The notes below the pieces were generated by a model, which was given only the letters and a program-made list of their open reading frames with translations, did no database searches and was not told the DNA's origin. Position numbers and translations under genes: made by a program. DNA of 64,000 nt from positions 7,485 to 71,484 of the IMG/VR virus record IMGVR_UViG_3300042520_001624. One strand, given 5' to 3'. Below are positions 40,739-64,000 of this stretch, in pieces. Position 1 is the first letter of the stretch; the number at the start of each line of letters is the position of its first letter. The DNA is from a virus.

Positions 40739-40974
40739 CGCTTGAAGCTCTCCGCAAGCTGTAGGAATTTGTCTAAAGGACAGTCCTGAACATGGTGTCC
40801 GGGTGGGAAGCCACACACCCGGCACTCTGCTTTTGTCCAGCCGTCAGCATGGCTAGTTTCTGTCGCTAGAGCTTCTGCGATGTCGACCATTTGCCCAATG
40901 GCAGCTTCGACCTTCTCTACACGCAGTTTGAGTTTGGCGATCTCTGCGACCAGATCAGCAGTTGCTTTGTTCAT
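40735..40974 (-). CDS. Hypothetical coiled-coil / zinc protein
   Basis: Starts MNKATADL; CRVC...H...C; ATGA overlaps on both sides. Confidence 0.55.
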   Translation of the reverse strand: MNKATADLVAEIAKLKLRVEKVEAAIGQMVDIAEALATETSHADGWTKAECRVCGFPPGHHVQDCPLDKFLQLAESFKR

Positions 40975-41320
40975 AGCTTCTCCGAACAGACCAAGCGAAA
41001 TCCTGTCATTTCGTGCACTACGTCTTCGTGAAGGGCGCCACAAAAGCCGGAGCTAGGACGCGGAATCCGGGAGTACATTCCATCCCACCACGAAAAAGCT
41101 TTAGTGACTAGGAAGTCAGGCACAAGCGGAATCCTCTTCGTTTGTCTCGGCTTAGCTTTCCGGGGAGTGTTGCAGGAGTGAGCATGGACTTCAGCTGCAC
41201 AGCCGGTTCCAAAACAGCTTTGCCCATCTTGTGATACAGCTTCCAGTCGTAACACTTCCCTATGGTTCGCACGTGGAAAAGCCCCAGCATGCCTGGAGCT
41301 AGCTGAAGCGCGGCGCTCAC
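40971..41320 (-). CDS. GxRL microprotein locus 1 (2 ORFs)
   Basis: 41320-41108 ends GFRLCLTS; 41123-40971 MPDFLVTKAFSWWDG...GFRLVCSEKL. Confidence 0.65.
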
Positions 41321-46562: not shown

Positions 46563-47614
46563 CGGGACTCCTGTATGGCTTTGTTGATGGTCTCTGCAAG
46601 ATCTGTCTGCTTGTCTGTCTCAACCTGAGAAGCAGCAGTCCAGATGTAGGATTCAGGATCTTCGCATCCGGCTACGGGATTGGTCATCTCGTACTCGCCT
46701 TCAGCATACGCTTGGTGGACTTGGTATCCGGACAGAAGCCCGGAGGATACCAGATCTTTCGCGTGCTCTTCTTGGTGCTGCTCTACCCGAGCGTACACCG
46801 AGAAGTCGGAGAGGTACTTCAGATCTGCCATCCACGTAACAAACTTGTCTGGACTGCCTGTGATTGACAGTGGCAGCCCTCGCAAGTCCAGGAACTTGGG
46901 AGTCAGGGCGGAGGGAATGCTTACACGTCCGTCTGTTGTAAAGACGCGTAGAGGCTTGTCTACGTCCGAGAAGTTCAGGGGGAGTAGAGATCCGCAGGAA
47001 ACTCCCCAAGAGGTTGTCGTTGTAGAGTCGTGCTCGTGTCCAAAGAACGCTTTGACAGTTCCACGATTGAACATGCCGATAAGCTTGCTCATGTCTGCGG
47101 CTGTAACACAGTCCGGACGGGGACTTGTGTCTACAAAACCGTAGTGAACTGCTAGATTGCAGCGCCCTTGGGCGGACAGTTGCTCCAGAACTTTCAAAGC
47201 TTCCATGGCATTTGGTCCGGAGTAGGGAACCATTAGCCAACGCTCTCCGCGGATCTGTGCAAACTGGGCTGTGTCGCAGATACAGACATTACCCGCATGG
47301 TTCATGGGAGCCAATGCGCTAGGAGCGTCATAAGACGCGATGTCATGGTTCCCTGCGATGATGTGCCACTCGACTCCGGTGGCAGCGATCATATCCAGAG
47401 ATGCGTTTAGAATCTGGGGGGATGGCTTGGGACCATCGAAGAAGTCCCCCAGCTGTACGATGTGCGTAACACCGTAGTGGAGCTTTGCGTACTCAACAAT
47501 CTGATAAACAGACTGGAGAATGTCTCGGCACCTGCGATTGAGACCGGCGACTACTGGACCCCCAAACTGTTTGTGGTTCCAGACATGGAGGTCGCCCAAC
47601 ACCAGGGTTGTCAT
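46559..47614 (-). CDS. sbcD: SbcD/Mre11 (T4 gp47-like) metallophosphoesterase nuclease
   Basis: GDLH, GDFFD, GNHD and GHEH motifs. Confidence 0.9.
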   Translation of the reverse strand: MTTLVLGDLHVWNHKQFGGPVVAGLNRRCRDILQSVYQIVEYAKLHYGVTHIVQLGDFFDGPKPSPQILNASLDMIAATGVEWHIIAGNHDIASYDAPSALAPMNHAGNVCICDTAQFAQIRGERWLMVPYSGPNAMEALKVLEQLSAQGRCNLAVHYGFVDTSPRPDCVTAADMSKLIGMFNRGTVKAFFGHEHDSTTTTSWGVSCGSLLPLNFSDVDKPLRVFTTDGRVSIPSALTPKFLDLRGLPLSITGSPDKFVTWMADLKYLSDFSVYARVEQHQEEHAKDLVSSGLLSGYQVHQAYAEGEYEMTNPVAGCEDPESYIWTAASQVETDKQTDLAETINKAIQESR

Positions 47615-47930
47615 GTGGTTACGCTCAGCCGCAGTCCAAGCCAGTCAAACTTGTAGTAGTCGCTTCCGGTTTGTTTGGTGTGGCGGTCTCTGTAAGAACG
47701 TACTTCTTCCCAAGAGTAAACGTAGCCTAGCGCTAGTTTTTGTCTGTTGTTTGAGTAGCTACGCACAGTCTTACACCGTTTCGTTCGTAGATTTTTCCAG
47801 CTGTCATTAGGTCGGGAAGACGGCAGTCCATTTGCCTTGCCCACATGAAATGAAAACCGTAACTTACTAGAGCGTGTTTTGCTCTCGGAGGTCGCGGCGT
47901 ACTGTTCCGCAGAAACGCTGGAAGTGGCAT
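47611..47930 (-). CDS. GxRL microprotein locus 2 (2 ORFs)
   Basis: 47930-47733 contains GVRLCVAT; 47766-47611 ...VYSWEE...LGLRLSVTT. Confidence 0.65.
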
Positions 47931-48030: not shown

Positions 48031-48036
48031 TGTATC

Positions 48037-48948: not shown

Positions 48949-48988
48949 GATGATTCGTGTCTCCAAAAGTGGGCTTTCCGCCCTATGA

Positions 48989-49013
48989 TCTGACAAGAAC
49001 AACTCTTGTCAGA
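48989..49013. promoter_or_regulatory. Perfect 10-bp inverted repeat upstream of the SSB gene
   Basis: TCTGACAAGA-ACAAC-TCTTGTCAGA. Confidence 0.45.
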
Positions 49014-49149
49014 AGCTCATGCACAACCGCAGTCCTACCCAGAAGCAGGAGTCGTGCGGGCTTTGCGTTAGGTCGTTGTCGCGTCCGTACAGATCTACTT
49101 CAAAGTACGACCAGCGTTTACCGAACAGCCTGTACTCAACCTCGGACAT
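49009..49149 (-). CDS. GxRL microprotein locus 3 (1 ORF, not in track)
   Basis: MSEVEYRLFGKRWSYFEVDLYGRDNDLTQSPHDSCFWVGLRLCMSF. Confidence 0.65.
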   Translation of the reverse strand: MSEVEYRLFGKRWSYFEVDLYGRDNDLTQSPHDSCFWVGLRLCMSF

Positions 49150-49537: not shown

Positions 49538-49558
49538 GATGCGGTGCTCCTGATGCGC

Positions 49559-50475
49559 TTACGCGCGCTGTGCACAAGGAGAAGATAGCAACTCGCTACC
49601 GGCCTTGTCAAGCCCATTGTCATTGTGTGTCACTGCCAGCCGAAACGAACCTTGGCGTGTGTAGTCTCGGTCGGGCATTGGGTAGTCTCCCAGCAAGAAG
49701 TATTTTCCGCTGGCGATGTACCCGTTAGTGTAGGTTACGATCATACGTCACCGACAGTCGTAAGCCTATCGCCCCGTGAGATCCTGAAAGTTCTCTGAAA
49801 GCGAACAGATGCCCTGTGAGCACGCAAGAGCTGCTGTGCGTTCCTTCTACTGCCCAGCCAAAGCTTGCGTAGGTTACTATGGGCGGGTTTGGTCTGTACT
49901 TATGCATACGTCATTTTCAGACGAAACCCCATACGGTCTGTCCTAACTGTAATTCTGTAATGCCACTTCAGACAGTTAAAGTCTGTGGCCCTAGAAAGAG
50001 CTGAATTCTCCATGTCGTAGAAGCAGGGGGCCACAGTCTCTACTTGAGCTTCGTCATGCATACGTCATCTCCAGCCTAAACCCCATCTGATTGCGTTCAG
50101 TATGGTCTTTAAACTTCCAAGACCAGTCGCCGTCTTGTGCTTCTGACAAAACAGCTGTGGCCTGTTCGCGCCAGCTGGGAGACACAGTCTGTACCCAAGC
50201 AGCCTTCACTTGATCTTCGTCATGCATACGTCATTTCCAGTCGCAAAGATCCGTACTTTGGCTGGAGGTCGCGTTTCGCAATAAAACTATCCAGCAGCAA
50301 GCTTGTGTTTAGCGAGTGAAAGCTGTAACTCCAGATTACCATGTGTTTATGGCGCATAAAACACTCCCAGTCGGAACGAGCCATTGTTGCCATGCTCGTC
50401 CCCAGGAAACTGCCAGCTTTGAAAGTGCGACACTTCTGGATACGTCAGTGCGTTACCACGTGAAAGCACTCTCAT
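49559..50475 (-). CDS. GxRL microprotein locus 4 (6 ORFs)
   Basis: 50475-50347 (SFRLGVFYAP), 50357-50220 (SLRLEMTYA), 50227-50054 (GFRLEMTYA), 50061-49900 (GFRLKMTYA), 49907-49725 (GLRLSVTY), 49744-49559 (SFRLAVTH). Confidence 0.75.
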
Positions 50476-50480
50476 GTAAG

Positions 50481-53237
50481 CTACTTTACCTTTTGCATGT
50501 TTCCCCATGAGGGACCTCTCTTTGCATCCGCAGTCAGCGGAGTGTTACCGAACAGGGGCTGCGTCATTGCAGTCTTGAGAAACTGAACAGTCTTCTCGAC
50601 GTCTTCAGTTCGGACCATGACCATGATTGAGTCGTAGACCTGCAGGATGAGCTTGCCGCCGTCTGTATTGGCACGCAGCCAGAGCACAGTCTCCCAGAGG
50701 TGGGAAGCAATGACGTCTACGGAGCTGCCCTGCACAGGCCCGTTGTACGTACTACGCGCTGCGTTAAGGTCGTAACGCTTTCTGTTCTCTCTGTCTTTCT
50801 TGATACCTTTCTCAAGATCAGACAAGGTAGAAGGGTTACGGCCAAGACCCCAGAGAGGTCTACGTCGAGCAGACTCCCCCTTCCAGCTAGTCCGAGAGTA
50901 ACCTGCAGACCAAGCTGCAGAGTACTGCTCTTCCATCCAAGCCCGGAGTCGGGTGTAGGTTTGGAACATGGAGACAGCGAGGGCCTCACCGTCTTTGTTG
51001 GGGATGCCCAAGCGACCTGCAAGCATTCCTCCGAGCTCGGAAGGTATTTCGTAGATCGCTGCGAAGTTACTGGTCTTAGCGTTCTCTCTGTCGAGGTCTG
51101 TAACCTTCTCGGGATCCTTGCCTACGGCTACAGCGAACTTCTTGGCAGAAGCCATGTGGAAGTCTGTGCCTGCTGTAAGCATCTCGTGCATCGCAGGGTC
51201 GCCAGACAGGTGGGCAGCACCCCTGATCTCGATTTGCCCTGCGTCTACTTCTACGATCTCCCATCCGGGGGAACAGCTGAAGCAAGCACGTAGCTTGTCG
51301 GCCAGCTTCTTCTTACGCTCGGTTCTACCCTTGCTCACATTGAACAAGTTAGGATCTTGACTGGAGGCTCGGCCGCTCTCAGTCCCGTCTGCAAGGTAGC
51401 TGGGATGTACGTAGCCGTCGGACCGGACAAAGTGCCCGTAGCCAATGGCGTATGTCCCAAGCTGCTTGGTAAGCTCCCGATGCTGTAGAATGAGATCTAC
51501 AATTGGATGCTTCTTCTTGAAGTCTTCCAGAGCATCGTCAGAGTAAGAAGGCTTACCGCTGGATGTCTTCTTCTTGGGGACAATGCCAAGAGTAGACAGG
51601 TAAGCACCTACCTGCGGAGAAGATCCGGGATTGAGTCCGGGCTTGTACCCGTCGATCTTGGCCTGTACCTGCTTGAGCTCTGTCTCAAGGTACTGTGCGA
51701 ACAGCTGGAGGCCCCCCTTGTCGAGGGGCATGCCGTTCATGCGCATCTCGCAGTAAGCCCACATAGCGGGCTTGGAGACTTCCTCCCAGAGCAGGCACAT
51801 GCCGGGATCAAGGATCAGGCGGGAGTTGCACCAGTCTTCCAGATGCCATGTGGTAAAGGCGTCTCGGGCACAGTACCTCCAGAGAATGTCCTTGGGCATG
51901 AAGCGGTATGCAAACTTCTCCTCGTCGAAACCTGCATCGAGATACTCGAACCACTTGTTCCAAGTGGCTGTGTCCAGAGCAGCTGGCTGAATGTAGGTAA
52001 GAGTCGGAGGCTTACGTGTCTTGCCAGTGGGTGTCGTCTGGAAAGACATGCGGTACTTGCGGAGCTCATCGCAGATAGCTGCGAGTACTGTGTGAGCTTC
52101 CTGCTTGTGTCCGCCCATACCGATGAGGTTGGCGGAGGTACCGAGGTCTGCAGCTGCGTCTGCCTCCAGCAGCTTACGCTTGATGCGGGCGTCTGACTGC
52201 AGGTTCATACTGCCGTGCTCTGTTTTGTATAGAGCAGAGCGGGAGCCAGCACCTACACGGGCATCGTGGTACCCGTAGCCGTACCTTGCTTCTGGGTCAC
52301 ACTGGAAGGCAGTGTAGTCGTACTGCCCATTCCAAGATGTCTGCGGCAGAGATAGAATCTGCTGCATGTAGGGATGGGGCATGTCTGGGGGGATGTCGTA
52401 GTCATCCCCCTGGTATGCAAACCAGTACTCACGGGGCCAGACCCATACATGGTCTTCTGTGGAGGTAGCCACGCACTCAATGCGGAAGTCATCCTCGAAC
52501 ATCATCCCGGAGGTCTCAACGTCCGTGGCGATGTAAGGTGCCTTGCGGCACTCTAGGAGGGCATTGCGGGCAGCCTCCAGCGTGGTGACGACGGTGTACT
52601 GGGCGTCGAGCAATCGGGCACTGGGCGGGCTCTGGAGGGCTGTAGCGATGTCCTGCTCCAGAGCCATGCGGATGAGGCGGTTGGAGAGGGCGTAGCTGGG
52701 ATCTGGCAGGAAAAAGACAGGCTTGGGACCATCGTTGTAGAACCAGCCGTAGCCAGTACGTACAGACAGAGCCCTGTACGTCTCCCCAAGGACAGACAGA
52801 CCCGCAAGAGGACCTACGAGGAAGATGACCTTGGCATCGGAATCTACAATGTCCTGATGCATGTAAGGTCTACACGCATCTACACATGCAGGGATGTCCT
52901 GATCTGGAACCAGCTCCCCGTCGGGCTTACGCTTGAAGGTAGGCTTGCAGCCCAGCGATAGCGAGTAGACTACGTCCCTGCCCGGAGCCACAGACTCGAA
53001 GATGGCTCGGAGGGACTGGCCTGCGTTGTCCGCAAGGGGGCGCCCAAGTCTGCGCTCGAACTCTCCGGGGTACTCACCGACAACCAAGATGTCTCCGGGG
53101 GTTCCCTCGGGGGAGATACAGCGCTGTCCTGCTGGCGTTAGCGTGTGTAGCTCGCAACGGGTACAAGCACTGGAGCGTTCGAGGGGCTGAACTGTCTGAA
53201 CGACGGGGAGTCGCTTGCCGGGAAACAGGGGGAGCAC
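50481..53237 (-). CDS. polA: Family A DNA polymerase with N-terminal family-4 uracil-DNA glycosylase-like domain (SPO1-type)
   Basis: CTRCELH...GEYPG (UDG4), DVET exonuclease I, YCARD, SGRASSQDPNL, DAGQIEIR, RENAKTSNF and QVYDS. Confidence 0.9.
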   Translation of the reverse strand: MLPLFPGKRLPVVQTVQPLERSSACTRCELHTLTPAGQRCISPEGTPGDILVVGEYPGEFERRLGRPLADNAGQSLRAIFESVAPGRDVVYSLSLGCKPTFKRKPDGELVPDQDIPACVDACRPYMHQDIVDSDAKVIFLVGPLAGLSVLGETYRALSVRTGYGWFYNDGPKPVFFLPDPSYALSNRLIRMALEQDIATALQSPPSARLLDAQYTVVTTLEAARNALLECRKAPYIATDVETSGMMFEDDFRIECVATSTEDHVWVWPREYWFAYQGDDYDIPPDMPHPYMQQILSLPQTSWNGQYDYTAFQCDPEARYGYGYHDARVGAGSRSALYKTEHGSMNLQSDARIKRKLLEADAAADLGTSANLIGMGGHKQEAHTVLAAICDELRKYRMSFQTTPTGKTRKPPTLTYIQPAALDTATWNKWFEYLDAGFDEEKFAYRFMPKDILWRYCARDAFTTWHLEDWCNSRLILDPGMCLLWEEVSKPAMWAYCEMRMNGMPLDKGGLQLFAQYLETELKQVQAKIDGYKPGLNPGSSPQVGAYLSTLGIVPKKKTSSGKPSYSDDALEDFKKKHPIVDLILQHRELTKQLGTYAIGYGHFVRSDGYVHPSYLADGTESGRASSQDPNLFNVSKGRTERKKKLADKLRACFSCSPGWEIVEVDAGQIEIRGAAHLSGDPAMHEMLTAGTDFHMASAKKFAVAVGKDPEKVTDLDRENAKTSNFAAIYEIPSELGGMLAGRLGIPNKDGEALAVSMFQTYTRLRAWMEEQYSAAWSAGYSRTSWKGESARRRPLWGLGRNPSTLSDLEKGIKKDRENRKRYDLNAARSTYNGPVQGSSVDVIASHLWETVLWLRANTDGGKLILQVYDSIMVMVRTEDVEKTVQFLKTAMTQPLFGNTPLTADAKRGPSWGNMQKVK

Positions 53238-53246
53238 TTGAACCTC

Positions 53247-53881
53247 TTAGCGGGTTTGAGTGGTGAGTCTGAGTCCGAAGATGGTGGTTCGGGCTTGAGG
53301 ACGACTGATTGTGCCGAAACGTATAGCGTGTACAAACAGTATTGTTTCGTCGTCCCAAGACGCATTGGCAGCGTACATTACACTACGCATAGTCTTATCC
53401 CGAAGTACTTTGTTGTTGCCGACTGCGGAAAAGGTTCGCCGCTAAGAAAACAGGACTCGTCTTCATACGCAGTAAAGACTGCCAGTCGGGCTCTTAGTGC
53501 AGACATAGTCGCAGTCCCATGTAGCGAAGACGTCGCGTTTTCGGCTCTATGCCAAAGGACATTTCGCCGTTGAGCAGCAACCAGCGCGTATCGCAGTCTC
53601 CTACAAACGAGTGTCGGAAATACAGACTCACTTGGCACCTACGCACAGCCGGAAAGACATGCGGTAGCGGTATACACTCTTTTCAAAGTCTGTTTCTCCG
53701 TTTGCAAAGTGTGTTGTTCCGTAGGAAAACCCGAAGATGTGTACCATGTAGCGATCCTCAGCGAGAATCTCGGGTTCTGGTCTGTTAGCTGGGCTGTCCA
53801 TGGATAGGGCCTGTGTTTGAGAAGGGAGAAGTAGTCGTTCCAAGATCCGCCCAGAATCTTCTGAACTCGGAAAGTCTGCAT
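53247..53881 (-). CDS. GxRL microprotein locus 5 (5 ORFs)
   Basis: 53881-53639 (ILGGSWND...SLRIAT), 53747-53628 (SFRLCVGAK), 53631-53494 (GLRLCLH), 53506-53378 (GIRLCVV), 53390-53247 (ASWDD...GLRLTT). Confidence 0.75.
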
Positions 53882-53888
53882 GTGTATA

Positions 53889-53912
53889 GGGTGGGGCTGC
53901 AAAGCCCCACCC
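53889..53912. promoter_or_regulatory. 9-bp hairpin at the head of microprotein locus 5
   Basis: GGGTGGGGC-TGCAAA-GCCCCACCC, next to an AT-richer promoter-like stretch at 53915-53945. Confidence 0.45.
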
Positions 53913-53963
53913 GCAACACACTATGTATTTATGCAGAGTCGCAAGGAAGTTTCCGGGAGATAG

Positions 53964-54944
53964 CTACTTGTCGAGGAGCTTGGTCTTGGCTGCGCCAGCA
54001 TACAGCTTCATCGTGGACTGTCGGGTGATCTTGTAGATCTCTTCGGGAGTGACGTTGAGCGCCGGGTGCTTCCCGATCATGGAGACGAGCAGGTCTTCGA
54101 CCATCTGGGCGCTGACACCCTGCTCTGTCTTGAGATGCGTACAGGCGTGCTTGACTGCCAGACCGAGCATGGGCTTGGGTTCCCCCGCCAGGGCTTCCAG
54201 CACGCTGTTGGCTGCCTCGGAGGGAGCGTTAGCGACCGGAGAGGCTACAGGTGCGTTCACGGGCACTGCAGGGGCTGCTACGGGCTCCTGCGGAGCCTCT
54301 GCCTTCTTCCCGGACATGGCAGCCCGGAAAAGCTCCTTGGCTTCCTCGGGTTCTACGTTCAGGACTTCTGCCAGTCGGAAGGCCAGAGTATTGGACCCCC
54401 TAAGCTTGTCGGGCTCTGCCAGCTTCTTGATGGCTCCCGCATGGTCCTTCCAGACCTTCAGAGCATCCTGCATGGTCTTGATCTTCTTACAGTCTTCTTC
54501 AAAGAGGAAGAGGACGTCGTTGACCAGCTTGGGGCTGTCGACTTCCGGAGCGACGTGGACCTTGGGGGGTGCAACCGCGGGAGGAGCCACTACGACCGGA
54601 GGGGGCTCGGGGGCTGCAACTTCCTGAACGACCGGAGCGTACGTGACGATGTTCTCCGGCTTGAACAGGGGTACCTGTCGCTCGTCGGTCTGCTGCAGGA
54701 GTTCCTTCTTGAAGGCTTCCGCAATGTTCTGCGGGTTCACGCTGGGGTTGATGGTGACGGTCAGGTCTTGGGGTGCTGCTCGGTAGTTGAACTTCCGGAT
54801 GTAGTCGAAGAGTTCTGTGTACTCTTCGTAGCTGTCGACGACCACTTCGATGCTGACCGTCTTCTTCGGGTCGTGGCCGTCGTGGTGGGTTCGGTACTCG
54901 CTGAAATCAACGTTGAGATCTCGGATGGTCATGGTCTCGCTCAC
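53964..54944 (-). CDS. Hypothetical protein with Pro/Ala-rich linkers
   Basis: 326-aa ORF with typical codon usage. Confidence 0.65.
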   Translation of the reverse strand: MSETMTIRDLNVDFSEYRTHHDGHDPKKTVSIEVVVDSYEEYTELFDYIRKFNYRAAPQDLTVTINPSVNPQNIAEAFKKELLQQTDERQVPLFKPENIVTYAPVVQEVAAPEPPPVVVAPPAVAPPKVHVAPEVDSPKLVNDVLFLFEEDCKKIKTMQDALKVWKDHAGAIKKLAEPDKLRGSNTLAFRLAEVLNVEPEEAKELFRAAMSGKKAEAPQEPVAAPAVPVNAPVASPVANAPSEAANSVLEALAGEPKPMLGLAVKHACTHLKTEQGVSAQMVEDLLVSMIGKHPALNVTPEEIYKITRQSTMKLYAGAAKTKLLDK

Positions 54945-55258
54945 TTGGTCTGGGGTGGAAGGTAGATGGAGAGGACAACGCCGGAGGCGTCTACCTGGGT
55001 CACTTTGGCGTGCATGTTGTAGCCATGCTGCTTGAGCCGGAAGACTACTTCCTTGAGGATGCTACGAGCCACGTATCCGGCTTGCTCCAGTCCGTGATAG
55101 ACAGCAACTGCAGTGTTGTCGTGCGGGTTGCGAGGCTCGATCTCTAGCGACAGTGTCTTGTTGAGGATCGAGGCGGGGTTGGGGATGTCGTGATGCTTGT
55201 AGCCCGCGAGGGTACAGTCGAACAGCTTGAAATACTCGGGATCGGTTGTGATTGTCAT
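54941..55258 (-). CDS. HIRAN domain protein
   Basis: LAGYKH...LEIEPRNPHDNTAVAV...AGYV motif. Confidence 0.75.
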   Translation of the reverse strand: MTITTDPEYFKLFDCTLAGYKHHDIPNPASILNKTLSLEIEPRNPHDNTAVAVYHGLEQAGYVARSILKEVVFRLKQHGYNMHAKVTQVDASGVVLSIYLPPQTK

Positions 55259-56127
55259 TGTTCTTCTTTCAGAGTGAGGGAGAGTCTTAGGCCAAAGGCT
55301 TTGGAATAGTAAGCTGTGTGGACATAGCTGCTCCAGCCACCGACCAGCGCAGCTACGGGCACTTGCAGGTCCCAAGCATGTCCTGCGGTGTGTTTTACGT
55401 TACCGAAGTACACAGTCTTATGCTCTTGTAGGAGACGCCGTGAGTTGGATATGAACTTCTGAAAGACTGGCTGGGAGGTCGAAAGAAGCCGCGCGTGCTT
55501 TCGTCCCACGCGAACCACAAAGACATTGTTATTGAATGCACAGTCTTAGTCCTACGTATTCGGCGTCCGTCTCAACGAATCGGATACTTACGGCTCGGAG
55601 TGGATTAAAGTCGTCCCACGAAGTCCAAATCATCCGTTTGACATACAACATAGCCGAACTCCCATGCAGTGATACTTTTTAACGACCAGCAGAATGACGG
55701 GCGCGTGCTTTGGTTGCCAGTCGTCGTTCCAAGACGTGTTTGCGATAGCCGTCGCACTCATTTTAGGCGTTACGAAACGCATAGTCTCAGTCCGAAGTAC
55801 AGGGCTTGGGTGCCTCTAAAGTAAGACCAGTGTACACGGCGATAGGAGGTTACTTGGTCGTCCCAAGAGATCCAAGACTTTACTAGATGATCTTCGTGCA
55901 CAGCCGTACTCCCAGATAGACTCTGTCTGAACTGTCGCTGTAATACCACGTCATGCTAAGGTGCCGATTGTCGTGATCGTCCCAAGAGATCAAAGGTTTG
56001 ACTCTTAGATTGCAGTACACAGTCTTACTCCTCTCCACGGGGCTTTTGTTTGCGCGTAGTTGCATGCTGCGTCTCTGGACGGTAGCCACCCTTCGTCCCA
56101 GCTGCCGAAGAAGTAGTAGCCGTACAT
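55255..56127 (-). CDS. GxRL microprotein locus 6 (7 ORFs)
   Basis: 56127-56005, 56020-55883, 55901-55770, 55782-55630, 55651-55529, 55541-55395 and 55413-55255; all have [S/A]W[D/N] and [G/S][V/L/I]RL[C/S]. Confidence 0.8.
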
Positions 56128-56129
56128 GG

Positions 56130-56990
56130 CTAGGCGAGGCACTTTTGAATCTCTGTTTGTAGCCATGAGGATTCTACGTCGTCTGGATCGAGGGTCGGGG
56201 GGAGTCTCACAAAGCCAGCACGGACTCCGTACAGCTTTAGCTTCATGGACAGGGCTTCGCCTTTTCTCCAGGCGTCTCCGTCCAGAACAACTGCAACAGG
56301 TCTGCGTGCTTCTCGGAGGATCTGAACTTGCGCCTCCGACCAAGTCCCGAGAGTAGCTACTGCATTGGGCCAGACGTACGCTACGTCCAGAGTGCCTTCG
56401 ACAACGAGGAGGGGTTCCTCGGTCTGTATGTACACTTGCTTCTGGTTGTAGAGAATCTCACCGCGGAACATACCGCGTTTGTACATGTAGGTCAGGTTGC
56501 TCTTGCCGAGGGTCCTACCTACATAACCGAGCCATGTTGTATTGTCTGCGTCGAGAACTGGAATGATGATTCTGTTTCTGAAGTCTTGCTCGTCTTCAGA
56601 CAGAGGACGAGAAGTAGAAACACCCATTTGAGTTTGTGCGATTGCGACGGGTTGGATACCGCGCGATCTGGCATACGAGTAGGCGGTGCTAGTGACCGCT
56701 GTAGGGCGTTCTCCGATGGGTACCCACCCTGCGGGCGGATCGAACACGGGGAGGGCTTTCCCGCGGCTCCTAGAGGCCGCTACGGCTGCCTCGTCGGCTT
56801 CCCAGCCATCGAGGTGCCCGAGCTTGTGGCAGCGGAAGCAAAACCACTTACCCGTTGCCCTGTCAAGGGTCAGGTTCTTTTTCTTGGTAGCGTGACCATA
56901 CATGACGCAGAACGGGCAGACAGCTCGCGTGGTCTGAACCCCACGAGTCCCATCCTGCAATGCGGAAACTACCAGACTGTTTTTAGACAT
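56130..56990 (-). CDS. DNA primase (zinc finger plus TOPRIM)
   Basis: CPFC...CFRC, NRIIIP, VGR, VVEGTLD and LDGD; start reassigned to MSKNSL. Confidence 0.85.
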   Translation of the reverse strand: MSKNSLVVSALQDGTRGVQTTRAVCPFCVMYGHATKKKNLTLDRATGKWFCFRCHKLGHLDGWEADEAAVAASRSRGKALPVFDPPAGWVPIGERPTAVTSTAYSYARSRGIQPVAIAQTQMGVSTSRPLSEDEQDFRNRIIIPVLDADNTTWLGYVGRTLGKSNLTYMYKRGMFRGEILYNQKQVYIQTEEPLLVVEGTLDVAYVWPNAVATLGTWSEAQVQILREARRPVAVVLDGDAWRKGEALSMKLKLYGVRAGFVRLPPTLDPDDVESSWLQTEIQKCLA

Positions 56991-57251
56991 GATGTGTGTT
57001 TGTGGACAGTCGAAATCCCCAACCGTTGCGGTGGACGCTCTCGCGGGCATACGACTTTCCAAACGCTGTCATGCTGGACAAAAGCACGCTGGTTTTATTG
57101 AAGTAGCCGCTGCTGGTTAGAACGAAGCGCATAGCCGTACTCCAAAGTTGTAAGCTGTGTACCAGCAATCAAAGCGGTTGAAACTCCGTTTGGAAGCTAT
57201 ACTTAGCCAGTTTCCCTGGAAAACTACTTTACTTCCCGAGATAGGAGACAT
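56983..57251 (-). CDS. GxRL microprotein locus 7 (2 ORFs)
   Basis: 57251-57117 (FQGNW...GVRLCASF); 57132-56983 (GFRLSTN). Confidence 0.7.
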
Positions 57252-58557
57252 CGGACATTCTCGACATGTGGCGAAAGTGGGGGATAGGTCCGAGCACAGT
57301 TCCGGTCCTGCCGTAGTACCGATCCGCGTCGATGTACCAGAGGTATCCGTCGGAAGCTTTCATGTCCGGCTGGGGAGTAGCCGTCAGGAAGAAGTCAGAC
57401 AGTCGGTACTTGTGGACGCTGTCTGCAACGTCCTTGCGTGTCAGCATGGGCATGACTTGTCCCGGGCGTGCTTCCGGACGCTTGGACTGCGTAGCGGTCA
57501 AGACCCAGTTGGGAGCTTCCTCTCGGGCTGCCATGTTGTACAGAGCTGTCCAGACGGTCTTGCCGCGGCCATACTCGGACTCACGATCCTCGCGCTTGGA
57601 GCTAGCGATCAGATCGCCGTAGTCCATAACGCGGTATCGGAATCGGGTATTGTGCTCCTTCTCCTGTCGATCAAACCAAGCAACGACTTCTTTTTCGTTG
57701 ATGGCTTGCTGCTCGAACTTCTCGACAACAACCTTGCCGACTCGTCCGGACTGTCGCAGCTGCTTGTATACCCGCAGAGCTTCCGCACGTAGCTTGGCGT
57801 TGAGCAGGTCGTTAATCGGTATGCCCAGGGTCGCTGCGATGACACGGCGATGGATCTCTTCGCGGGGGAGCTCCATGGAGAGATACGCAACGTCCTCGCC
57901 ATGCATGGAGGCCACAGCAGCTAGCTGACACAGGTATACGGACTTACCAGCTTTGGAATCCATGAGAGTCGTGGTGAGCGTGCCGCAGGGCAGCCCGCCA
58001 CCGAACTCGGAGTCCAGCTCGCAGATACCTGTCGGCATCTGCTCTGCGCGGGTAGAACACTCAAGGAGCAACTCGGAGTCTTCGCCGATCTCCGAGGCTT
58101 TGGTCTCTATGTCTGCTGCGGCAGCACCCAACTGGTCGCAAGCTGCCATGAGGTCGACAAGGTCTCCGAACTTGGAGCCGTTGCCGTAACGCTCTACAGC
58201 TTTGGAGACAAGACCCTGCATCATGTGACGGCGAACTGGCTCGACCAGCTCTGTCACAGTGGCGTCGATGTCAACCTCACCATCTTGAGAAGCCAACGCT
58301 TCTCCGATGTTGAGAACTGTCTGCTCGTCGATCTTGCCTTCTGACATCCAGAGAGAAGCACGCTGGCAAACGAGGTCCTCTGTGGGATTGTTGTGGTCGA
58401 CGGCAACGGCCTTGGCAAGCTTCACCAAAGTCTGGTTGGTTGGGTCGGCTAGCTCGTCGGGAGCTACTTTGTTTCCGATGCGCAGCCAGAACAACTTGTG
58501 GCTTGCGCAGAGGACAGAAACCTGCCGTTCAAACTTGGGATTGAGGTTGTAGCTCAC
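57229..58557 (-). CDS. Replicative DnaB-like helicase
   Basis: PTGICELD...GGLPCG, AGKS, YLSME, DYGDLI, TATQ and VADS motifs. Confidence 0.8.
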   Translation of the reverse strand: MSYNLNPKFERQVSVLCASHKLFWLRIGNKVAPDELADPTNQTLVKLAKAVAVDHNNPTEDLVCQRASLWMSEGKIDEQTVLNIGEALASQDGEVDIDATVTELVEPVRRHMMQGLVSKAVERYGNGSKFGDLVDLMAACDQLGAAAADIETKASEIGEDSELLLECSTRAEQMPTGICELDSEFGGGLPCGTLTTTLMDSKAGKSVYLCQLAAVASMHGEDVAYLSMELPREEIHRRVIAATLGIPINDLLNAKLRAEALRVYKQLRQSGRVGKVVVEKFEQQAINEKEVVAWFDRQEKEHNTRFRYRVMDYGDLIASSKREDRESEYGRGKTVWTALYNMAAREEAPNWVLTATQSKRPEARPGQVMPMLTRKDVADSVHKYRLSDFFLTATPQPDMKASDGYLWYIDADRYYGRTGTVLGPIPHFRHMSRMSDVSYLGK

Positions 58558-59316
58558 GCTTGGGTCCTTGTTGTGAGTCGGAAGGTTGCGCCAGGGGGTC
58601 GAGGAACATCAAACTGTAATTGGCACCTTCGCACGTCGTAGAGTCCTCGGTAGAATTGGAGGTTTCCGCCGATCCGTATAATGCCGATGGCTACGTTGTA
58701 GGTCCTCACGGCAGTCCTACGCAGAGTCGGAAGGTTCTACCAGTGTATTTGTTGTAGGGAGCAAGATGGCCGAGGCTGTAGTGGCACCACGATACACGGT
58801 ACATCGAGTAGCCATTCCGAACATGCAAAGTCACCATTGTATCCTCGTGCACAGTCGGAGTGTCTGGTCGTCGCAGCGCATTGTAGGTCCCCAAGAACAG
58901 GCAGTTTTGTACACCCGTTGAGCGGTGTCTGACCAGTAACAACCGAAACCTATCACTATCCGGGCTTTACGCATAACCGGACTCCGTCAACGCTGTGTCT
59001 ATCTTTTGAGTTGCTTGAGTAGCGGCGGAATCTGCACCACTTCGCGTCTACGAAAGACGACCACTTTACTTGTACGAAAGACATAGTCGCATTCCGTCGA
59101 GGTTGTATCTGACGTATCTATGAGCCCAATCGAAACGCAGATCGCACCTGTGTGCATCTAGGAACTGCGCCCACTTTACTTGTACGAAAGACATAGTCTT
59201 ATCGTGTCTGTGAAGTACCGAAGGTTTGCAAAGTATACGAGCCAGTTTCGTCTATAGAACTGGCCTTTCCAGCAGCTCCAAGAAGTTTGAATCACGTAAG
59301 TGTCGGAGCTCACCAT
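58554..59316 (-). CDS. GxRL microprotein locus 8 (6 ORFs)
   Basis: 59316-59176 (TIRLCLSYK), 59194-59066 (GMRLCLSYK), 59084-58956 (GVRLCVKPG), 58974-58831 (TLRLCTRIQW), 58837-58706 (TFRLCVGLP), 58709-58554 (TFRLTT). Confidence 0.75.
59061..59198. repeat. 28-bp exact direct repeat spanning two microprotein junctions
   Basis: CCACTTTACTTGTACGAAAGACATAGTC at 59061-59088 and 59171-59198. Confidence 0.9.
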
Positions 59317-59894
59317 ACGTACTCTCCGGACTGCACAGCTTTCAGCAGAGACTTGGCTGCTTGTTGATTGGCTTGCTGCGCTGCTTCGAGCTTGAGCAGG
59401 TAGTCTCGCTCGCTTGTCTTTTGCAGGCGGAGTTTTTGCCATTCTGCAATGGCGATTCTGCTTTCGGGAGTGAGCACGGTCCGGGGGACTCCGAGTTGGT
59501 GGAGCCAGGACATAGGCCCTTCCAGCTCTCTCGCCAGCGCATTCGGAGAAAACACAAACCCGAACGGGGGATGCGTCAGCTTTTCCGGGACATCGGAGCC
59601 GAGGAAGGCGTTGTACCGGTGGAGGACCCAAGCAGCCGGGGGGATGTCCAGAGCGTACAGCTGGCCGATGCAGAGCTTGGCGGCAGGACTGATCTGCTTC
59701 GGGGGGCTAGCCCAGTGCCCGCACAGCCGCCGCAGGGCCGTGGTCCAGAGCTTGGTGTAGTACGGGTCTGGCTGGGCTTCTGCGGGGGCTACAGGGGCCA
59801 CAGGGAGCACGGCGGCGTGGAGTAGCTCAGGGGTCGGAAAGGGCGGAAGGTTGTCGATCCGCAGGGTCCTGCTGAAGACTTGCAGAGGTTCCAT
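59310..59894 (-). CDS. Hypothetical protein (replication module)
   Basis: 194-aa ORF between the two helicases. Confidence 0.6.
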   Translation of the reverse strand: MEPLQVFSRTLRIDNLPPFPTPELLHAAVLPVAPVAPAEAQPDPYYTKLWTTALRRLCGHWASPPKQISPAAKLCIGQLYALDIPPAAWVLHRYNAFLGSDVPEKLTHPPFGFVFSPNALARELEGPMSWLHQLGVPRTVLTPESRIAIAEWQKLRLQKTSERDYLLKLEAAQQANQQAAKSLLKAVQSGEYVW

Positions 59895-60521
59895 GTTGGC
59901 TCTCTATGGTGGAGGTGTATGTAACTGCAAGCCGGAAGCCTGAGATGTCTACTTCGGTGTTGACGTCTTTAATGCAGGGGTAGAGGAGAGCGTCACCTTC
60001 CCATTCCCAGTGTGAGTACACGCCGAGGCTCACGTCCAAGAAACGCATAGTCTTACCGAGATGTTTTTGTGGTGGAATTTTGCGTGAAACAAGGTAGAGA
60101 ACTTCTTGCACCACTGATGTGAAAAGTGAGAGTAGACTATTGAATACATAGTCTTACTCCCACAACAAAAGCACGGTACTCAGCTCGTGTTACTTGCTGC
60201 GCGTAATCTAGGTTGGAGCCTGCGTAGGACCAGTGGAGATAAACTACTCTGGATACGAGCAGCATAGTCTGAATCCTCCGATGTCGAGTTTATTGTCGTT
60301 GGAGTGAGCACAGCGTGTGCGCGTAGCATCGCCAGCCCAAAACCAATGCGCGTACACACCTAGTCCGTATTCTATGTACAGCATAGACGAAAAGTCCCTA
60401 CGTAGGTGCTCTCATAGCTATATCGCTCGGGGAGAGTCAGACGAGCGTTCATGCCCCAGTGATATGGGGCATAGTTGGCTATCTTGCGCTTTTCTGGCTC
60501 AACGTTCTGTTTTGACGACAT
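59827..60521 (-). CDS. GxRL microprotein locus 9 (5 ORFs)
   Basis: 60521-60372 (TFRLCCT), 60384-60244 (GFRLCCSY), 60265-60137 (GVRLCIQ), 60149-60030 (SVRLCVSWT), 60048-59827 (GFRLAVTY). Confidence 0.75.
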
Positions 60522-61857
60522 AGCCGAATCTTTCGTAGGCTTGTTTACGTTCTTGGGAATGCTTTTCGAGCCACTGGCAGCCTTTGTGTTGCTGCTTGCC
60601 TTGGCATCCGCATCCCCTGTCTAAAACATCGAAGACGTAGAAGTTGTCTTTTGTAGTACCATCTTTCATGTGTCGGCGGGACCCTCTGCCAACTTTCTGA
60701 ATGATGTCGACAACAGCTTTACCTCCCGATGCTTGTATGACAGTGGCGATCTCGGGAATGTCCACACCCTGTCGGAAGATCGGGGTTGAGACCAGAGTAC
60801 CTACAGTTCCGTTGACGAGTTGCCGAACGGCTCTGTTGGCATCGTTCATTGGTACTTTGTCGTTGACGTGAACTGCGGTAGCGCCAAGCTGTTTCATTAG
60901 AATGGCTTGGTGCTCGTGTGTCCTTACGAAGACAATACGAGGTGCTGGCGTTGTTGCTATCAGCCGGAGAATCAGGTTGTTCCGGACTGTATTCTTGACG
61001 ATAGCGTGCTTCTCCCAAGCAACATACCCCATTGCTGCGGACACGGGAGCATGGTGCATGGGCACCATTGTGAGATTGGCTTTTGCTGTGATGCCATCAG
61101 ACGCTGCCTGTGAAGGCATGTACTTGTCGATGACATCTCCGAAAGCTCCAATGGTATAGATGCTTTTCTTGTCGGAGCGGTGTAGGGGTGTCCCGGAAAA
61201 CCCTATTCGTATCTCTGCGTTTATGCAGGAGAGAACAACTCCGAGGTAGGTATTACCTCCGCTGCCGTGAACCTCATCTCCGAGCACAGCAACGAAAGAC
61301 TCTATCTTGTCTTTCGGGAGTTTGGCAGCACTATTTACTGTCGCAACAATGACAGGTCGCTTGAGCTCTTTGTAGGAGTCTCCGAATCTCCCTGCTGTGA
61401 TCTCTGCAACTTTCTTAATTCTGTCGTACATTTCGTGCATGAGCTTGATGCTCGTGACAAGGACAAGAGTAGGTGCATTGATCTCTGCGACCAGGGCTGC
61501 AATGGTTGTCGCTTTGCCAGTCCCGGTTGCGTGTTGGATGATGCCTTTCCGGCTCTCCCAGATGGCGTCTAGCGCCCGGACTTGGTGCGGCCAGAGACCG
61601 TCCCGGGGGACAGCGAGGGGCGCCACCGATGGCTTACGGGAGGCAACAGCCACCTCCATACCTCGCTCCCGTGCCGCAGCGACCACGCGCGCTGCAAGCC
61701 CAGCCGGGAACATTCGAGTGCTGGAAAGAAGACAGTGGGAGGTGTCTTTGCCTTGTGGGTTGGACGAGTGGAATGTGAGGTACTCACGGAGAAAAGACTC
61801 CTCTTGCGTTGTTGCTTGGATTATCTTGGCGTATGAGTTTCCAACAGCGAGCTGCAT
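60499..61857 (-). CDS. Superfamily 2 helicase (UvsW-like)
   Basis: LWPHQ, ATGTGK, DEVH, SGTP, GVDIP and QKVGRGSR motifs. Confidence 0.9.
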   Translation of the reverse strand: MQLAVGNSYAKIIQATTQEESFLREYLTFHSSNPQGKDTSHCLLSSTRMFPAGLAARVVAAARERGMEVAVASRKPSVAPLAVPRDGLWPHQVRALDAIWESRKGIIQHATGTGKATTIAALVAEINAPTLVLVTSIKLMHEMYDRIKKVAEITAGRFGDSYKELKRPVIVATVNSAAKLPKDKIESFVAVLGDEVHGSGGNTYLGVVLSCINAEIRIGFSGTPLHRSDKKSIYTIGAFGDVIDKYMPSQAASDGITAKANLTMVPMHHAPVSAAMGYVAWEKHAIVKNTVRNNLILRLIATTPAPRIVFVRTHEHQAILMKQLGATAVHVNDKVPMNDANRAVRQLVNGTVGTLVSTPIFRQGVDIPEIATVIQASGGKAVVDIIQKVGRGSRRHMKDGTTKDNFYVFDVLDRGCGCQGKQQHKGCQWLEKHSQERKQAYERFGYVVKTER

Positions 61858-62387
61858 GTCGGAATACTAACACACAGCCGCGTAGACACTACAACTCTGC
61901 GGGTTTCAGAAGCGTAGACAGACATCTCCCACTTGTTCTTGGGATAATCCTTTTCGCACCAAGCAGGGAGAAAAGTGTGCTGGGCTAGCGGTCTGGGACG
62001 GTCATGCATAGTCGAAAGCTCCTGTCTCTGAAGTCGCTCTCAACGTCTCCTCTCCATTTTGCTGGGGAGGTAGACCGAAAACGGCCGAACGAGGGGTAGA
62101 ACGCGGTAACAACTACATGAAACATAGTCTTATCCCCAAGTAAGAGGTTCCGCTAGTTTTCAGGCGGTCTCCAATACCTTGTGTGCCGAGGGACAGCCAA
62201 CTTGATCCGAACAAGAAGTAGTAGGCTACAGAGATGCGCACAGACGTAGTCCTAACCAGAGTTGGTTGAAACCCGCATGTCTGCGTCGAGAGTCTTTTGT
62301 CTTTTCCAAGCTACTAAAAAGCAGACGGTCTTTAGCTTCGTAGTAGGTAACGCCGCAGATGCTGGGATACCTAAGCCGCAGGTACAT
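61821..62387 (-). CDS. GxRL microprotein locus 10 (4 ORFs)
   Basis: 62387-62226 (GLRLCASL), 62241-62113 (FGSSW...GIRLCFM), 62125-61985 (SFRLCMT), 62009-61821 (STRLCVS). Confidence 0.75.
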
Positions 62388-62625
62388 AGGTGTTTGAAGG
62401 TTCATCGAATTTCCACTGTCGCATTAGTTCGTCGTACACGATCTTACCGAGGTGCTTGGCGATGTCCGGGAGGTACACGTACACAACCCCGTTTGCACGG
62501 TGCAACGTATACGTCTTGTCGGATATGCGATTGTAAAGTGTCCGCTTTGAAAAGCGGAACATCTTTACTGCCAAGTCGACGTGGACTAGCTCACGTCCCA
62601 TACCTTTGATACGTGTCTGCTTCAC
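62371..62625 (-). CDS. Small HTH (excisionase-like) DNA-binding protein
   Basis: VDLAVKMFRFSKRTLYNRI helix-turn-helix pattern. Confidence 0.55.
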   Translation of the reverse strand: MKQTRIKGMGRELVHVDLAVKMFRFSKRTLYNRISDKTYTLHRANGVVYVYLPDIAKHLGKIVYDELMRQWKFDEPSNTYVPAA

Positions 62626-63083
62626 GGCTCCTCCTTGTCTGGCTCCGATGCAATGAGCAGGAGCTTCTCTGTTTCGTACTTGGCGAAGAGATTCTTTACG
62701 TACTCTTCTGCCACGCGACTTGCAGCTCTGGCAATCGCAAGATCGACTTGCTCGTTTACTTTGGTTGCAATACGCCGCTGTAGATCTTTATTGTCTTGCA
62801 GCTGTAGTACTTGCAACGTCGTTTCGTACACGATGCGGTCTTCGATAGATTTGTCCAGTGCAGTAAGAGCTGCATTCTTGTTAGGGTTGGGGGTACTGTA
62901 GTTCCCAAAGAGCTTGTTGAGGGCTCGCTCTTGGGCGGACTCCATTACACGCCGGATGGCGTAGTCAGTTTCGTGCTCTCTGGCGGAGAGGCTGCGCTTG
63001 TCGGACAGCCGAGCAGCGACCTGCTTTTCGATGCGAGCAAGCGTGGCCTTTTCCAAGGCTGCTTTGGCATCGGTAAGAGACAT
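62622..63083 (-). CDS. Hypothetical helical protein
   Basis: 153 aa from MSLTDAK. Confidence 0.55.
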   Translation of the reverse strand: MSLTDAKAALEKATLARIEKQVAARLSDKRSLSAREHETDYAIRRVMESAQERALNKLFGNYSTPNPNKNAALTALDKSIEDRIVYETTLQVLQLQDNKDLQRRIATKVNEQVDLAIARAASRVAEEYVKNLFAKYETEKLLLIASEPDKEEP

Positions 63084-63093
63084 AGGAGTCTTT

Positions 63094-63597
63094 CTACTCG
63101 CCACGGGTTTTGTTCTTTCGTGCGGAGGGGGTTTGTCGACGGGGAGGTGCTCGGAAAGCGCGCTGGTATGCTGAGTGTGCGTCTCTCCAGGCATGGTCTT
63201 TGATGTAGCGGTTCATGCTTTCTGTGTAAGACCGAATGTACTCGTTCTTTGCGACTTCAAGAATCTGTGCTTGGTACTCCGGAGTAGACATGTGCTCTTC
63301 GGCCATCTCTTTTGCCTTCTCCAGAGCAGCCTGTGGAACCTCGTGATTCTCAAGAGCACCGCGGTATCTAGAGACAATGTAGTCGTCTCCGATCCGACGA
63401 ACGAACTCTTCTTTGACGAGCTCACGAAGAGCGTCCGGAGTCGCGAGGTACCCGGTCATTACCTCGATCACAGCGTCTCGGGCTTGTTGTTCCAGAAGCT
63501 GAATGACGTCTCGGGCTTCTGTGTTCTTGAAGCCTTCTTTCAGACTTTGCAGAACTTGTGCATAGCTCGGAGGTTTGGAAGGCTTATTCTTTGCCAT
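63094..63597 (-). CDS. Hypothetical helical protein
   Basis: 167-aa ORF. Confidence 0.55.
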   Translation of the reverse strand: MAKNKPSKPPSYAQVLQSLKEGFKNTEARDVIQLLEQQARDAVIEVMTGYLATPDALRELVKEEFVRRIGDDYIVSRYRGALENHEVPQAALEKAKEMAEEHMSTPEYQAQILEVAKNEYIRSYTESMNRYIKDHAWRDAHSAYQRAFRAPPRRQTPSARKNKTRGE

Positions 63598-63870
63598 GAT
63601 CTTGTTTTGTCGAGAGTGTGGTTACGCACAGCCGAATACTGTTGGAGGAGTCGTGACTTGAAGGTTTCTCGGGCACTGTGGTTTTCTTGCTGTTTTGAAA
63701 GTTCAGGTCTTTGGCGAGGGTGTCTTCAAACACACCTCCGATCATTAGGCGCTCTTTGTAGCTGCGCATAGTCTTAGTCCCCTCAGCCGGAAATATGCCC
63801 ACGCCAACCCCAGCCGACTGCGTAGAAGTTTGAGATCAGGGGAGAGGTCGTCGGGAAAGGCGCTAGACAT
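63584..63870 (-). CDS. GxRL microprotein locus 11 (2 ORFs)
   Basis: 63870-63745 (GLRLCAATKSA); 63769-63584 (LMIGGVFED...SIRLCVTT). Confidence 0.7.
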
Positions 63871-64000
63871 TACCAGCACTGCTTTAGTCCGTGGCAATGG
63901 ACATGCTCGCGAAGCCCGCACGCAGAGACATGATCTGGTCTCGGAGGGCGGGGAGCTTGGTGTCGAACAGCGACTCGTACTTCTCTACGACGGTGAGCTG

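Follow-up and report, generated by a model that had tools for sequence, protein, structure and literature searches.

A candidate family of small phage proteins encoded in self-chaining arrays between replication genes

Introduction

How a phage could carry dozens of tiny genes in unbroken rows between its replication genes, with one gene appearing to open inside the last codons of another, is the question raised by a 64,000-nt stretch of viral DNA (hereafter called the window). The window comprises bases 7485-71484 of the 71,484-nt IMG/VR virus record IMGVR_UViG_3300042520_001624, which has an estimated completeness of 81%. The sequencing runs that contain window DNA are lake-water and freshwater metagenomes. 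Structural genes occupy the plus strand to about 40 kb, and the genes from 40.1 to 64 kb are all on the minus strand. For part of this minus-strand block (53247-62387), a sequence-only reading had described small open reading frames (ORFs) ending in a shared Arg-Leu-Cys motif, and had proposed that a single element of about 15 bp serves as protein motif, as ribosome-binding and start site, and as recombination homology, in an expandable cassette format. The analysis reported here favors, with a probability of roughly 0.7, a lineage-restricted family of translated, fast-evolving small proteins held in an expandable, self-chaining cassette format.

Results

Chained units and their frame arithmetic

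Forty-two small ORFs on the minus strand, found between 41003 and 63780, were observed to end in the pattern [G/S/T/A]-hydrophobic-Arg-Leu within 40 codons of the stop codon, and 29 of the 42 lay inside 53247-62387. The feature is therefore present in the region first proposed for it, but the arrays extend beyond that region, over 40971-63921. The proteins encoded by these units are 39-97 aa in length (median about 48 aa), with a median isoelectric point of 9.2 and 14% aromatic residues. The units have in common a hydrophobic beginning, a Trp (or Tyr/Phe) located 10-18 residues in, a fast-changing middle, and a tail of the form [G/S/T]-hydrophobic-Arg-Leu-small-hydrophobic. The Arg-Leu pair is usually followed by Cys (29 of 42 units), then by 1-10 further residues and the stop codon.

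The Leu-Cys codons were predicted to contain the start codon of the next unit, and this was confirmed for most of the Cys units in the window. In 24 of 29, the last Leu base and the first two Cys bases (TG) together spell an ATG or GTG, the first codon of an ORF with the next motif at its end, and a walk along these embedded starts reproduces the arrays link for link. The distance from motif to motif at junctions of this kind, hereafter called type 1, is 101-149 nt, and it equals 2 mod 3 in 25 out of 25 consecutive pairs. Because the motif instances were chosen frame by frame, with their neighbors ignored, this regularity is independent evidence for a maintained chain of frames; the chance of obtaining 2 mod 3 in all 25 pairs is (1/3)^25.

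A subfamily of six units at 49.6-50.5 kb (type 2) ends instead in R-L-[G/E/K/S/A]-[V/M]-[F/T]-[Y/H]. Here the next ATG falls in the Tyr-Ala/Asp codons in five of the six units, 11 nt beyond the type-1 position, and the motif spacing is 1 mod 3 in all five pairs. Taken over both types, the frame arithmetic holds in 30 of 30 cases.

Linked units overlap by 4-34 nt, with a median of 16 nt, and the arrays are without gaps. Four of the 29 links overlap by 4 or 8 nt and the other 25 by 11-34 nt; the 8-nt overlap was seen in three of the five type-2 links, and a GTGA overlap in one type-1 link. The units occupy 5,777 nt of the window, in periods of 101-166 nt. In the window, the first units of arrays overlap the upstream stop codons by 7-35 nt or begin 2 nt after them, and the last units overlap or abut the downstream starts.

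On the plus strand of the window the junctions appear as the heptamer CA[TC]AG[TC]C. It occurs 37 times on that strand, 34 times in 40900-64000 (21 of them in 53247-62387) and three times in 1-40899, and it is absent from the opposite strand inside 53247-62387. The 15 positions originally quoted for CATAGTC, CACAGTC or CATAGCC each carry one of these heptamers or CACAGCC. The octamer AGRCTRTG was matched 18 times against 9.0 expected, a count that none of 100 shuffles reached, and the protein-level pattern gave 43 matches for the minus strand of 40.9-64 kb, compared with a background of 5-8 in each other class of strand and region. Nucleotide alignment between units was limited to junction blocks of 19-31 nt with 63-86% identity, and the unit bodies were unrelated.

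Conservation of the motif and the identity of the following residue

The motif is conserved at the level of the protein: the 42 instances draw on the full set of six codons for Arg and likewise for Leu (AGN is always AGR, and TTN always TTR). The information at the second codon positions of the motif is 1.0, 2.1, 1.9 and 2.2 bits, against 0.21, 0.07, 0.61 and 0.46 bits at the third positions, values to be read with the caveat that the search pattern itself specified Arg and Leu; since the arrays are gap-free, no link was missed for want of Arg-Leu. The use of all six codons for both residues argues that this is primarily a peptide motif, and the six-unit subfamily, which chains via its own junction, argues that the motif is independent of the embedded start. 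Arg-Leu is also kept where the motif cannot serve initiation, namely in the type-2 units and in the eight terminal units that lack Cys. The idea of a single element acting as both motif and start was thus correct insofar as the start is embedded, but Arg-Leu itself is maintained independently of chaining. With a codon model trained on 25 large genes, the summed scores were -6817 for the proposed frame, against -7107 and -6980 for the other two, and the proposed frame was preferred in 27 of 40 units.

Eight of the 11 terminal units in the window lack Cys and carry Ser, Thr, Ala or Val in its place, and the five Cys-less tails listed by the sequence-only reading (GLRLTT, GLRLSL, GFRLST, TFRLTT and GFRLAV) are all present. 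The same reading had suggested that Cys would go together with having a downstream unit, and two further cases described below agree with it: the one clean terminal unit of a second phage also lacks Cys, and a strain that lacks a downstream unit has Ser. At the start-bearing junctions of the two phages, the codon after Leu was TGY in 47 of 47 cases and TGG in none. For a start codon to arise across Leu-x codons, x must be Cys or Trp, and Cys is the sole small residue with a TG- codon; CTA or CTG followed by TGY consequently gives Leu-Cys together with the next ATG or GTG. The simplest reading is that only a small residue is tolerated after Arg-Leu, with Cys being selected by chaining. Nascent-peptide arrest was considered as a separate role for the tail and was dropped, as the length of the tail after Cys varies (2-10 residues in the window).

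Ribosome-binding boxes and RNA signals

Ribosome-binding boxes were compared by duplex energy. The median was -6.5 kcal/mol for large genes, which have clear GGAG/GAGG boxes, -5.5 kcal/mol for the 24 junction starts, and -2.7 kcal/mol for random positions. The proposal that the Gly codon of the motif sits as a Shine-Dalgarno sequence for the next unit applied to every scored junction of the second phage (see below) but to only part of those in the window, where 13 of 24 junctions reached -5.5 kcal/mol or better and seven of 24, in which Ser/Thr codons replace Gly, had no box. The 24 junction segments showed no extra stability relative to dinucleotide shuffles (mean fold z -0.15), and Rfam gave no matches. 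The counts of promoter-like sites (8, expectation 6.8) and of terminator-like sites (18, expectation 15.0) were at shuffle level and are compatible with long polycistronic transcripts.

Apart from the arrays, AGACT, the Arg-Leu core of many junctions, was noticed 7-27 nt 5' of seven structural-gene starts on the plus strand (7380, 9741, 11732, 13107, 14937, 23211 and 28255); it often stands directly after a GGAG-like box, as at 9741, 13107 and 14937. The enrichment is a rough estimate.

A second phage with chained units

A DNA pattern of three chained motifs was scanned over IMG/VR. One true further record was obtained, hereafter called G001 (15,070 nt, 43.6% GC, 32% complete). Another pattern match, G002, was rejected as false, being antisense to the gene of a 20-aa leucine-rich-type repeat protein, and the three-motif pattern had no match in 185,579 species genomes.

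G001 contains two minus-strand chains of 14 and 10 motif units (24), which make up roughly a fifth of the record. The second chain consists of a 117-aa protein with the same tail, nine more units, and then a 60-aa ORF that lacks the motif. An ATG is present in the Leu-Cys codons of all 23 Cys units of G001, in line with the predicted position of the start. The overlap was a constant 10 nt in the 21 junctions scored, and the duplex energy was -5.4 kcal/mol or better at 21 of 21 (median -6.8, against -2.9 at random positions). Gly-Val (GGAGT...) was found in 16 of the 23 G001 motifs scanned. The sole clean terminal unit, SIRLSI, has lost Gly, Cys and box together. One of the chains, array alpha, stops about 65 nt before the next gene, with a hairpin-like inverted repeat between, and that gene has its own AGGAG.

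The units of both phages have the Trp/Tyr and the hydrophobic N-terminal stretch in common. In reciprocal hidden Markov model searches, the top 15 of 15 and 14 of 14 hits were array ORFs and ranked above 1,213 control ORFs, with best E values of only 0.0015 and 0.0069. No other similarity between G001 and the window was returned by tblastx (E = 1e-5) or by tblastn of 12 proteins (E = 0.01).

Two side observations were made in G001. The 60-aa ORF at the last link (5752-5934, minus strand) has a strongly hydrophobic N-terminal half and no Arg-Leu tail, and an out-of-frame SVRLTT beside it has the appearance of a frameshifted or broken terminal unit. The region between the two chains (3288-5780, minus strand) encodes a phiEco32-type COOH-NH2 ligase (PF14395), a class-II glutamine amidotransferase and a protein resembling formylglycine-generating enzyme (FGE)-sulfatase, genes that possibly form a peptide- or metabolite-modifying module.

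Unit turnover between strains

Contigs from four other lake runs were compared with window positions 47000-64000. A contig from run X4 (19,097 nt, depth 21) differs from the window in 0.7-3% of letters and shows three unit-scale differences. The first is a skip of 166 nt (50042-50207), exactly one type-2 unit. Its joint lies inside a block common to both neighboring units, just past their start codons, and produces an in-frame hybrid start. The second, which is likewise present in a contig from another run (X10), is a skip of 144 nt whose joint contains 4 extra letters, for a net difference of 140 nt (joint 63625->63770). This equals the distance between the motifs at 63780 and 63640, and the joined frame reads ...Arg-Leu-Ser-Val-Thr-Thr, with Ser at the position where the window, which has the downstream unit, carries Cys. 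The third is a replacement, in which 90 nt of unit body (57140-57229) give way to 227 other letters with edges at the DnaB stop codon and inside the motif. The X10 contig departs from the window at that same edge, and the in-frame translation of its loose end finishes in Ser-Ile-Arg-Leu-Cys. The other indels listed in X4 were two 1-nt insertions and one 1-nt deletion (47975, 47977 and 48021), in or near the tRNA-Leu gene. An assembly artifact is unlikely because the shared blocks are shorter than the 31-mers of the assembler and because two of the events occur in two runs. Insofar as the edges of all three differences fall on junctions or no more than about 20 nt away, the expectation that units behave as cassettes is supported.

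For 15 of 40 units the best paralogue came from the unit's own array, where chance predicts 3.7 (p = 0.0005), an excess compatible with local duplication. Metagenome orthologues of the unit at 55529-55651 were 85% and 80% (P0004) identical to it, with the ends kept and the middle differing. An orthologue of the terminal unit (55255-55413) matched it in every one of the final 14 residues but differed at many middle positions. A metagenome DnaB copy was identical to the window DnaB at 440 of 442 residues; this copy and P0004 may lie on one contig, judging only from the equal size of their longest contigs (14,771 nt).

Arrays and gene surroundings

In total, ten arrays and one single unit, all on the minus strand of 40971-63921, are located at almost every junction of early or replication genes. 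Taken from the highest coordinates downward, an array of two units at 63584..63921 has the tails GLRLCAATKSA and SIRLCVTT..., and its second unit (63626-63769) is the one missing in the X4 and X10 contigs. Four units at 61821..62405 lie between an 84-aa gene and a SNF2-type helicase gene; the last of them, STRLC, has Cys, and its GTG opens two codons only. The helicase gene is separated from a 194-aa gene by five units at 59827..60521, ending in GFRLAV without Cys, and the 194-aa gene from a DnaB-like helicase gene by six units at 58554..59316, ending in TFRLTT. In this six-unit array the fifth unit has Cys with Leu encoded by CTC, and the sixth begins at a GTGA stop/start overlap. Two units at 56983..57251 stand between the DnaB-like helicase and primase genes, the first being the unit whose body is replaced in X4.

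Further along, seven units of an S-W-D-D subfamily at 55255..56127 fill the junction of the primase gene and a HIRAN-domain gene, and the TGA of the terminal unit, GLRLSL, overlaps the ATG of the following gene. Between a 326-aa gene and the DNA polymerase gene are four units and a 26-aa remnant (53247..54001), with GLRLTT as the terminal tail. The remnant (an ORF at 53921-54001, minus strand, with the tail SLRLCINT) shares 38 nt with the end of the 326-aa gene and looks like a decayed first unit. The six type-2 units are at 49559..50508, with the junction sequence R-L-[E/K/S]-[M/V]-T-Y-[A/D], and X4 lacks one of them, as described above. The single unit, GLRLCMSF, at 49009..49149 has kept Cys, and its GTG opens 13 codons only. 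Two units at 47611..47930 lie just downstream of the tRNA-Leu gene; the TGA of the terminal unit, GLRLSVTT, overlaps the ATG of a phosphoesterase gene. The last array, at 40971..41290, has two units and the terminal tail GFRLVCSEKL.

The larger minus-strand genes encode a family-A DNA polymerase, a primase-like protein, the DnaB-like and SNF2-type helicases and the HIRAN-domain protein, together with an SbcC/SbcD-like pair, a ParB-like nuclease (43411-44184) and several proteins without an assigned family. The DNA polymerase (50481-53237, minus strand, 918 aa) carries a uracil-DNA-glycosylase-superfamily domain (PF03167, residues 49-187) N-terminal to the polymerase domain. The SbcCD-like pair (44731-47614, minus strand) consists of an SbcC/Rad50-like ATPase of 512 aa and a calcineurin-like phosphoesterase of 351 aa. 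A tRNA scan of the window found one tRNA only, a tRNA-Leu with anticodon CAA (47932-48006, minus strand) within the early block, and the ATG of a chain unit (47930) is 2 nt past it. Gene callers had listed only part of the unit ORFs, some with wrong starts (P0016), which is a caution for annotators.

Searches for families, folds and relatives

Comparison of the units with Pfam, PHROGs and NCBIfam gave nothing below chance level, a profile search of the Protein Data Bank (PDB) gave no matches, and the ESM Atlas gave no usable match. A profile search of 1.84 billion proteins returned only window units, the orthologue of one relative (P0013) and three spurious-looking repeat proteins. Because only two of 40 window units (P0001 and P0015) themselves pass E = 0.001 in this search, it says little on how widely the family is spread. 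At abstract level, beyond the part of PMC12548453 available to us, no description of such a family was found in the literature.

Relatives of the phage itself were sought through its replication genes. Megablast with the window gave no match among cultured phages, and the best polymerase relatives in cultured phages are only 22-32% identical. Two records with polymerases of about 42% identity (L001 and L002) and one with a DnaB of 51% identity (L005) contain no such arrays. A metagenome scan returned distant DnaB relatives only, no match was obtained for close orthologues in IMG/VR or for a 65%-identical DnaB in genome contigs, and intermediate relatives are known by their DnaB, at 70-89% identity. 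Two features of these relatives were recorded in passing. In L002 (polymerase 43% identical), a 2.4-kb stretch without convincing ORFs (13300-15700, plus strand) is tRNA-arm-like and possibly a tRNA cluster. The DnaB of L005 (8339-10726, plus strand) has 795 aa against 442 aa in the window, which suggests an insertion such as an intein.

Two ideas about the units were followed without result. A diversity-generating retroelement was unsupported, with no reverse transcriptase among the 20 larger proteins scanned in a search that was not exhaustive. The unit tail resembles h-x-L-x-h, the pattern of sliding-clamp-binding peptides, and a complex prediction with the Escherichia coli clamp was uninformative either way.

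Discussion

The candidate family is new, and its arrays are a new form of overlapping, probably coupled gene organization. If the units are translated, as the favored explanation holds, translation would proceed from long early transcripts. Each start would be reached in one of two ways, by direct initiation at its box or by ribosomes fresh from termination at a stop codon 10-34 nt further downstream. The Gly(-Val) codons (GGAG...), 7 nt upstream of the start, could act as the ribosome-binding box. In reporter work summarized in the review PMC12548453, reinitiation declines with long overlaps; box-driven initiation is therefore favored, with upstream ribosomes keeping the site unfolded. Recombination between junction blocks would add, remove and swap units. 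Because a unit runs from start to start with a constant frame step, a gain, loss or swap of this kind would leave the chain intact. As for what the peptides do, the odds are about even that they are host-directed accessory proteins with a common docking tail and a variable middle, the alternative within the same explanation being that they are nearly functionless passengers.

Several observations weigh against a translated family of this kind. Boxes are weak at 11 of the 24 window junctions, and unit overlaps of 13-34 nt exceed those that were efficient for reinitiation in the reporter work summarized in PMC12548453. None of the runs containing the window stretch is on record as RNA. In the codon model 13 of 40 units prefer another frame, and the first-position GC content is 0.507 in units, compared with 0.611 in large genes. 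Three of the 11 terminal units keep Cys (63640, 61886 and 49035), as do two inner units in which Leu is encoded by CTC and gives no start; one of these two hands over at the GTGA overlap, and the other is the 26-aa remnant. AlphaFold2 with family alignments, in two runs, predicted no confident fold, with predicted local distance difference test (pLDDT) scores of 62.6 and 56.3. Finally, homologues outside close relatives and G001 were not found, in a search that was insensitive.

The main rival overall, which we regard as unlikely, is that the units are selfish relay repeats similar to mycobacterial interspersed repetitive units (MIRUs), whose frames are open only to pass ribosomes between essential genes, the peptides being idle. 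The location of the units speaks for this, since they fill nearly all replication-gene junctions and overlap the flanking stops and starts, and MIRUs, according to PMC12548453, insert at start codons and carry a coupled ORF. The rapid change of the middles beside an almost invariant DnaB, the lack of a predicted fold, the weak first-position GC and the differences in unit number among strains would also be expected of idle repeats. A pure relay has no need, however, of an amino-acid motif that persists through full synonymous turnover, nor does it account for the Trp/Tyr and hydrophobic N-terminus common to two unrelated phages. Array alpha of G001 relays to nothing, and the amount of DNA devoted to units (5,777 nt in the window, about a fifth of G001) also counts against this explanation.

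We consider it very unlikely that the units are precursors of ribosomally synthesized and post-translationally modified peptides (RiPPs), with the invariant Cys as the modification site. Small multi-copy peptides with conserved ends and a variable middle would suit such a role, as would the PF14395 ligase, the class-II glutamine amidotransferase and the FGE-sulfatase-like protein encoded between the G001 arrays. Neither PF14395 nor PF03781 was found in the 71-kb record, however (for PF14395 a weak negative, as none of 14 control genomes matched), and no known maturase was found among the 20 larger neighbors scanned. Cys is absent from eight of 11 terminal units and from all type-2 units and is hence inessential to the peptide, and the units have no Pfam, PHROG or NCBIfam match.

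Still less credible is a non-coding repeat of about 15 nt, be it a promoter, terminator, processing site or structured RNA, with the ORFs incidental to it. A short block (AGACTATG and variants) does recur every ~120 nt on one strand only, but no Rfam family was matched, a single tRNA was found, junction folds were at shuffle level (mean z -0.15), and promoter-like and terminator-like sites were near expectation, whereas codon periodicity, synonymous turnover and frame arithmetic in 30 of 30 cases point to coding. A single long repeat protein made by programmed frameshifting at each junction, suggested by the equal frame shift at every type-1 junction, is the least likely of the rivals, as the junctions contain no slippery heptamer, each link has its own ATG or GTG and often a box, the old frame stops 1-10 codons past Cys, and the type-2 shift is different.

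Translation of the units would mean that an undescribed small-protein family takes up about 8% of one phage genome and about a fifth of what was recovered of G001. The comparison of strains bears on gene turnover in the dark matter of phage genomes, with unit-scale changes seen beside a replication gene that is identical at 440 of 442 positions. A further step, which we put forward tentatively and with more doubt than confidence, is that the arrays are a translational cassette system, in which the tail of an effector is also the ribosome-binding box, start codon and recombination handle of the next gene. A duplicated, swapped-in or shuffled cassette would then be expressed at once, and the phage would hold a portable, fast-evolving library of host-directed peptides without a dedicated recombinase, a counterpart of the integron at the level of translation. 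The format would account for the multiplication and exchange of tiny genes without loss of expression, with one coding motif doing three jobs. With the motif fixed by the genetic code, it would also be a concrete case of overlapping signals shaping protein sequence.

Four known systems invite comparison. MIRUs are nucleotide-level repeats of ~40-100 bp in mycobacterial chromosomes. Similar to MIRUs as portrayed in PMC12548453, the units are short, often tandem, and located at operon junctions, with a co-oriented ORF and overlapping stop and start codons; their number also varies among strains (two unit-sized skips and one replacement in X4, and one skip in X10). MIRUs couple by a 4-nt overlap, according to the same source. 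The units here, unlike MIRUs, are 101-166 nt long with unique bodies, are conserved at the amino-acid level, form a phage family, overlap by 10-34 nt, and in G001 include an array without a bridge to the next gene.

For co-directional genes in general, translational coupling is associated in PMC12548453 with NTGA, -1 and -8 spacings. As in such coupled overlapping genes, the linked ORFs run in one direction and a following ORF begins within the final part of the one before it, some links having the 8-nt overlap and one the GTGA overlap. They differ in that most overlaps are set by the peptide motif and not by the stop codon, at 13-25 nt in the window and 10 nt in G001, and in that up to 14 follow in a row.

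Two further systems share the array-like or multi-copy character of the units. Prochlorosin precursors are a multi-copy family of precursor peptides with a constant and a hypervariable part, and the units are likewise dozens of small paralogues with conserved segments around a fast-changing one. Here, in contrast, the constant parts are at both ends, the chaining is out of frame, and no modifying enzyme was found in the window genome. Integron cassette arrays are expandable rows whose expression depends on position, and the arrays described here are similarly expandable rows of short cassettes, with content that varies among close strains. No integrase or attC-like site was seen, however; the cassettes are paralogues of one family, and they are chained by translation starts that lie inside a coding motif.

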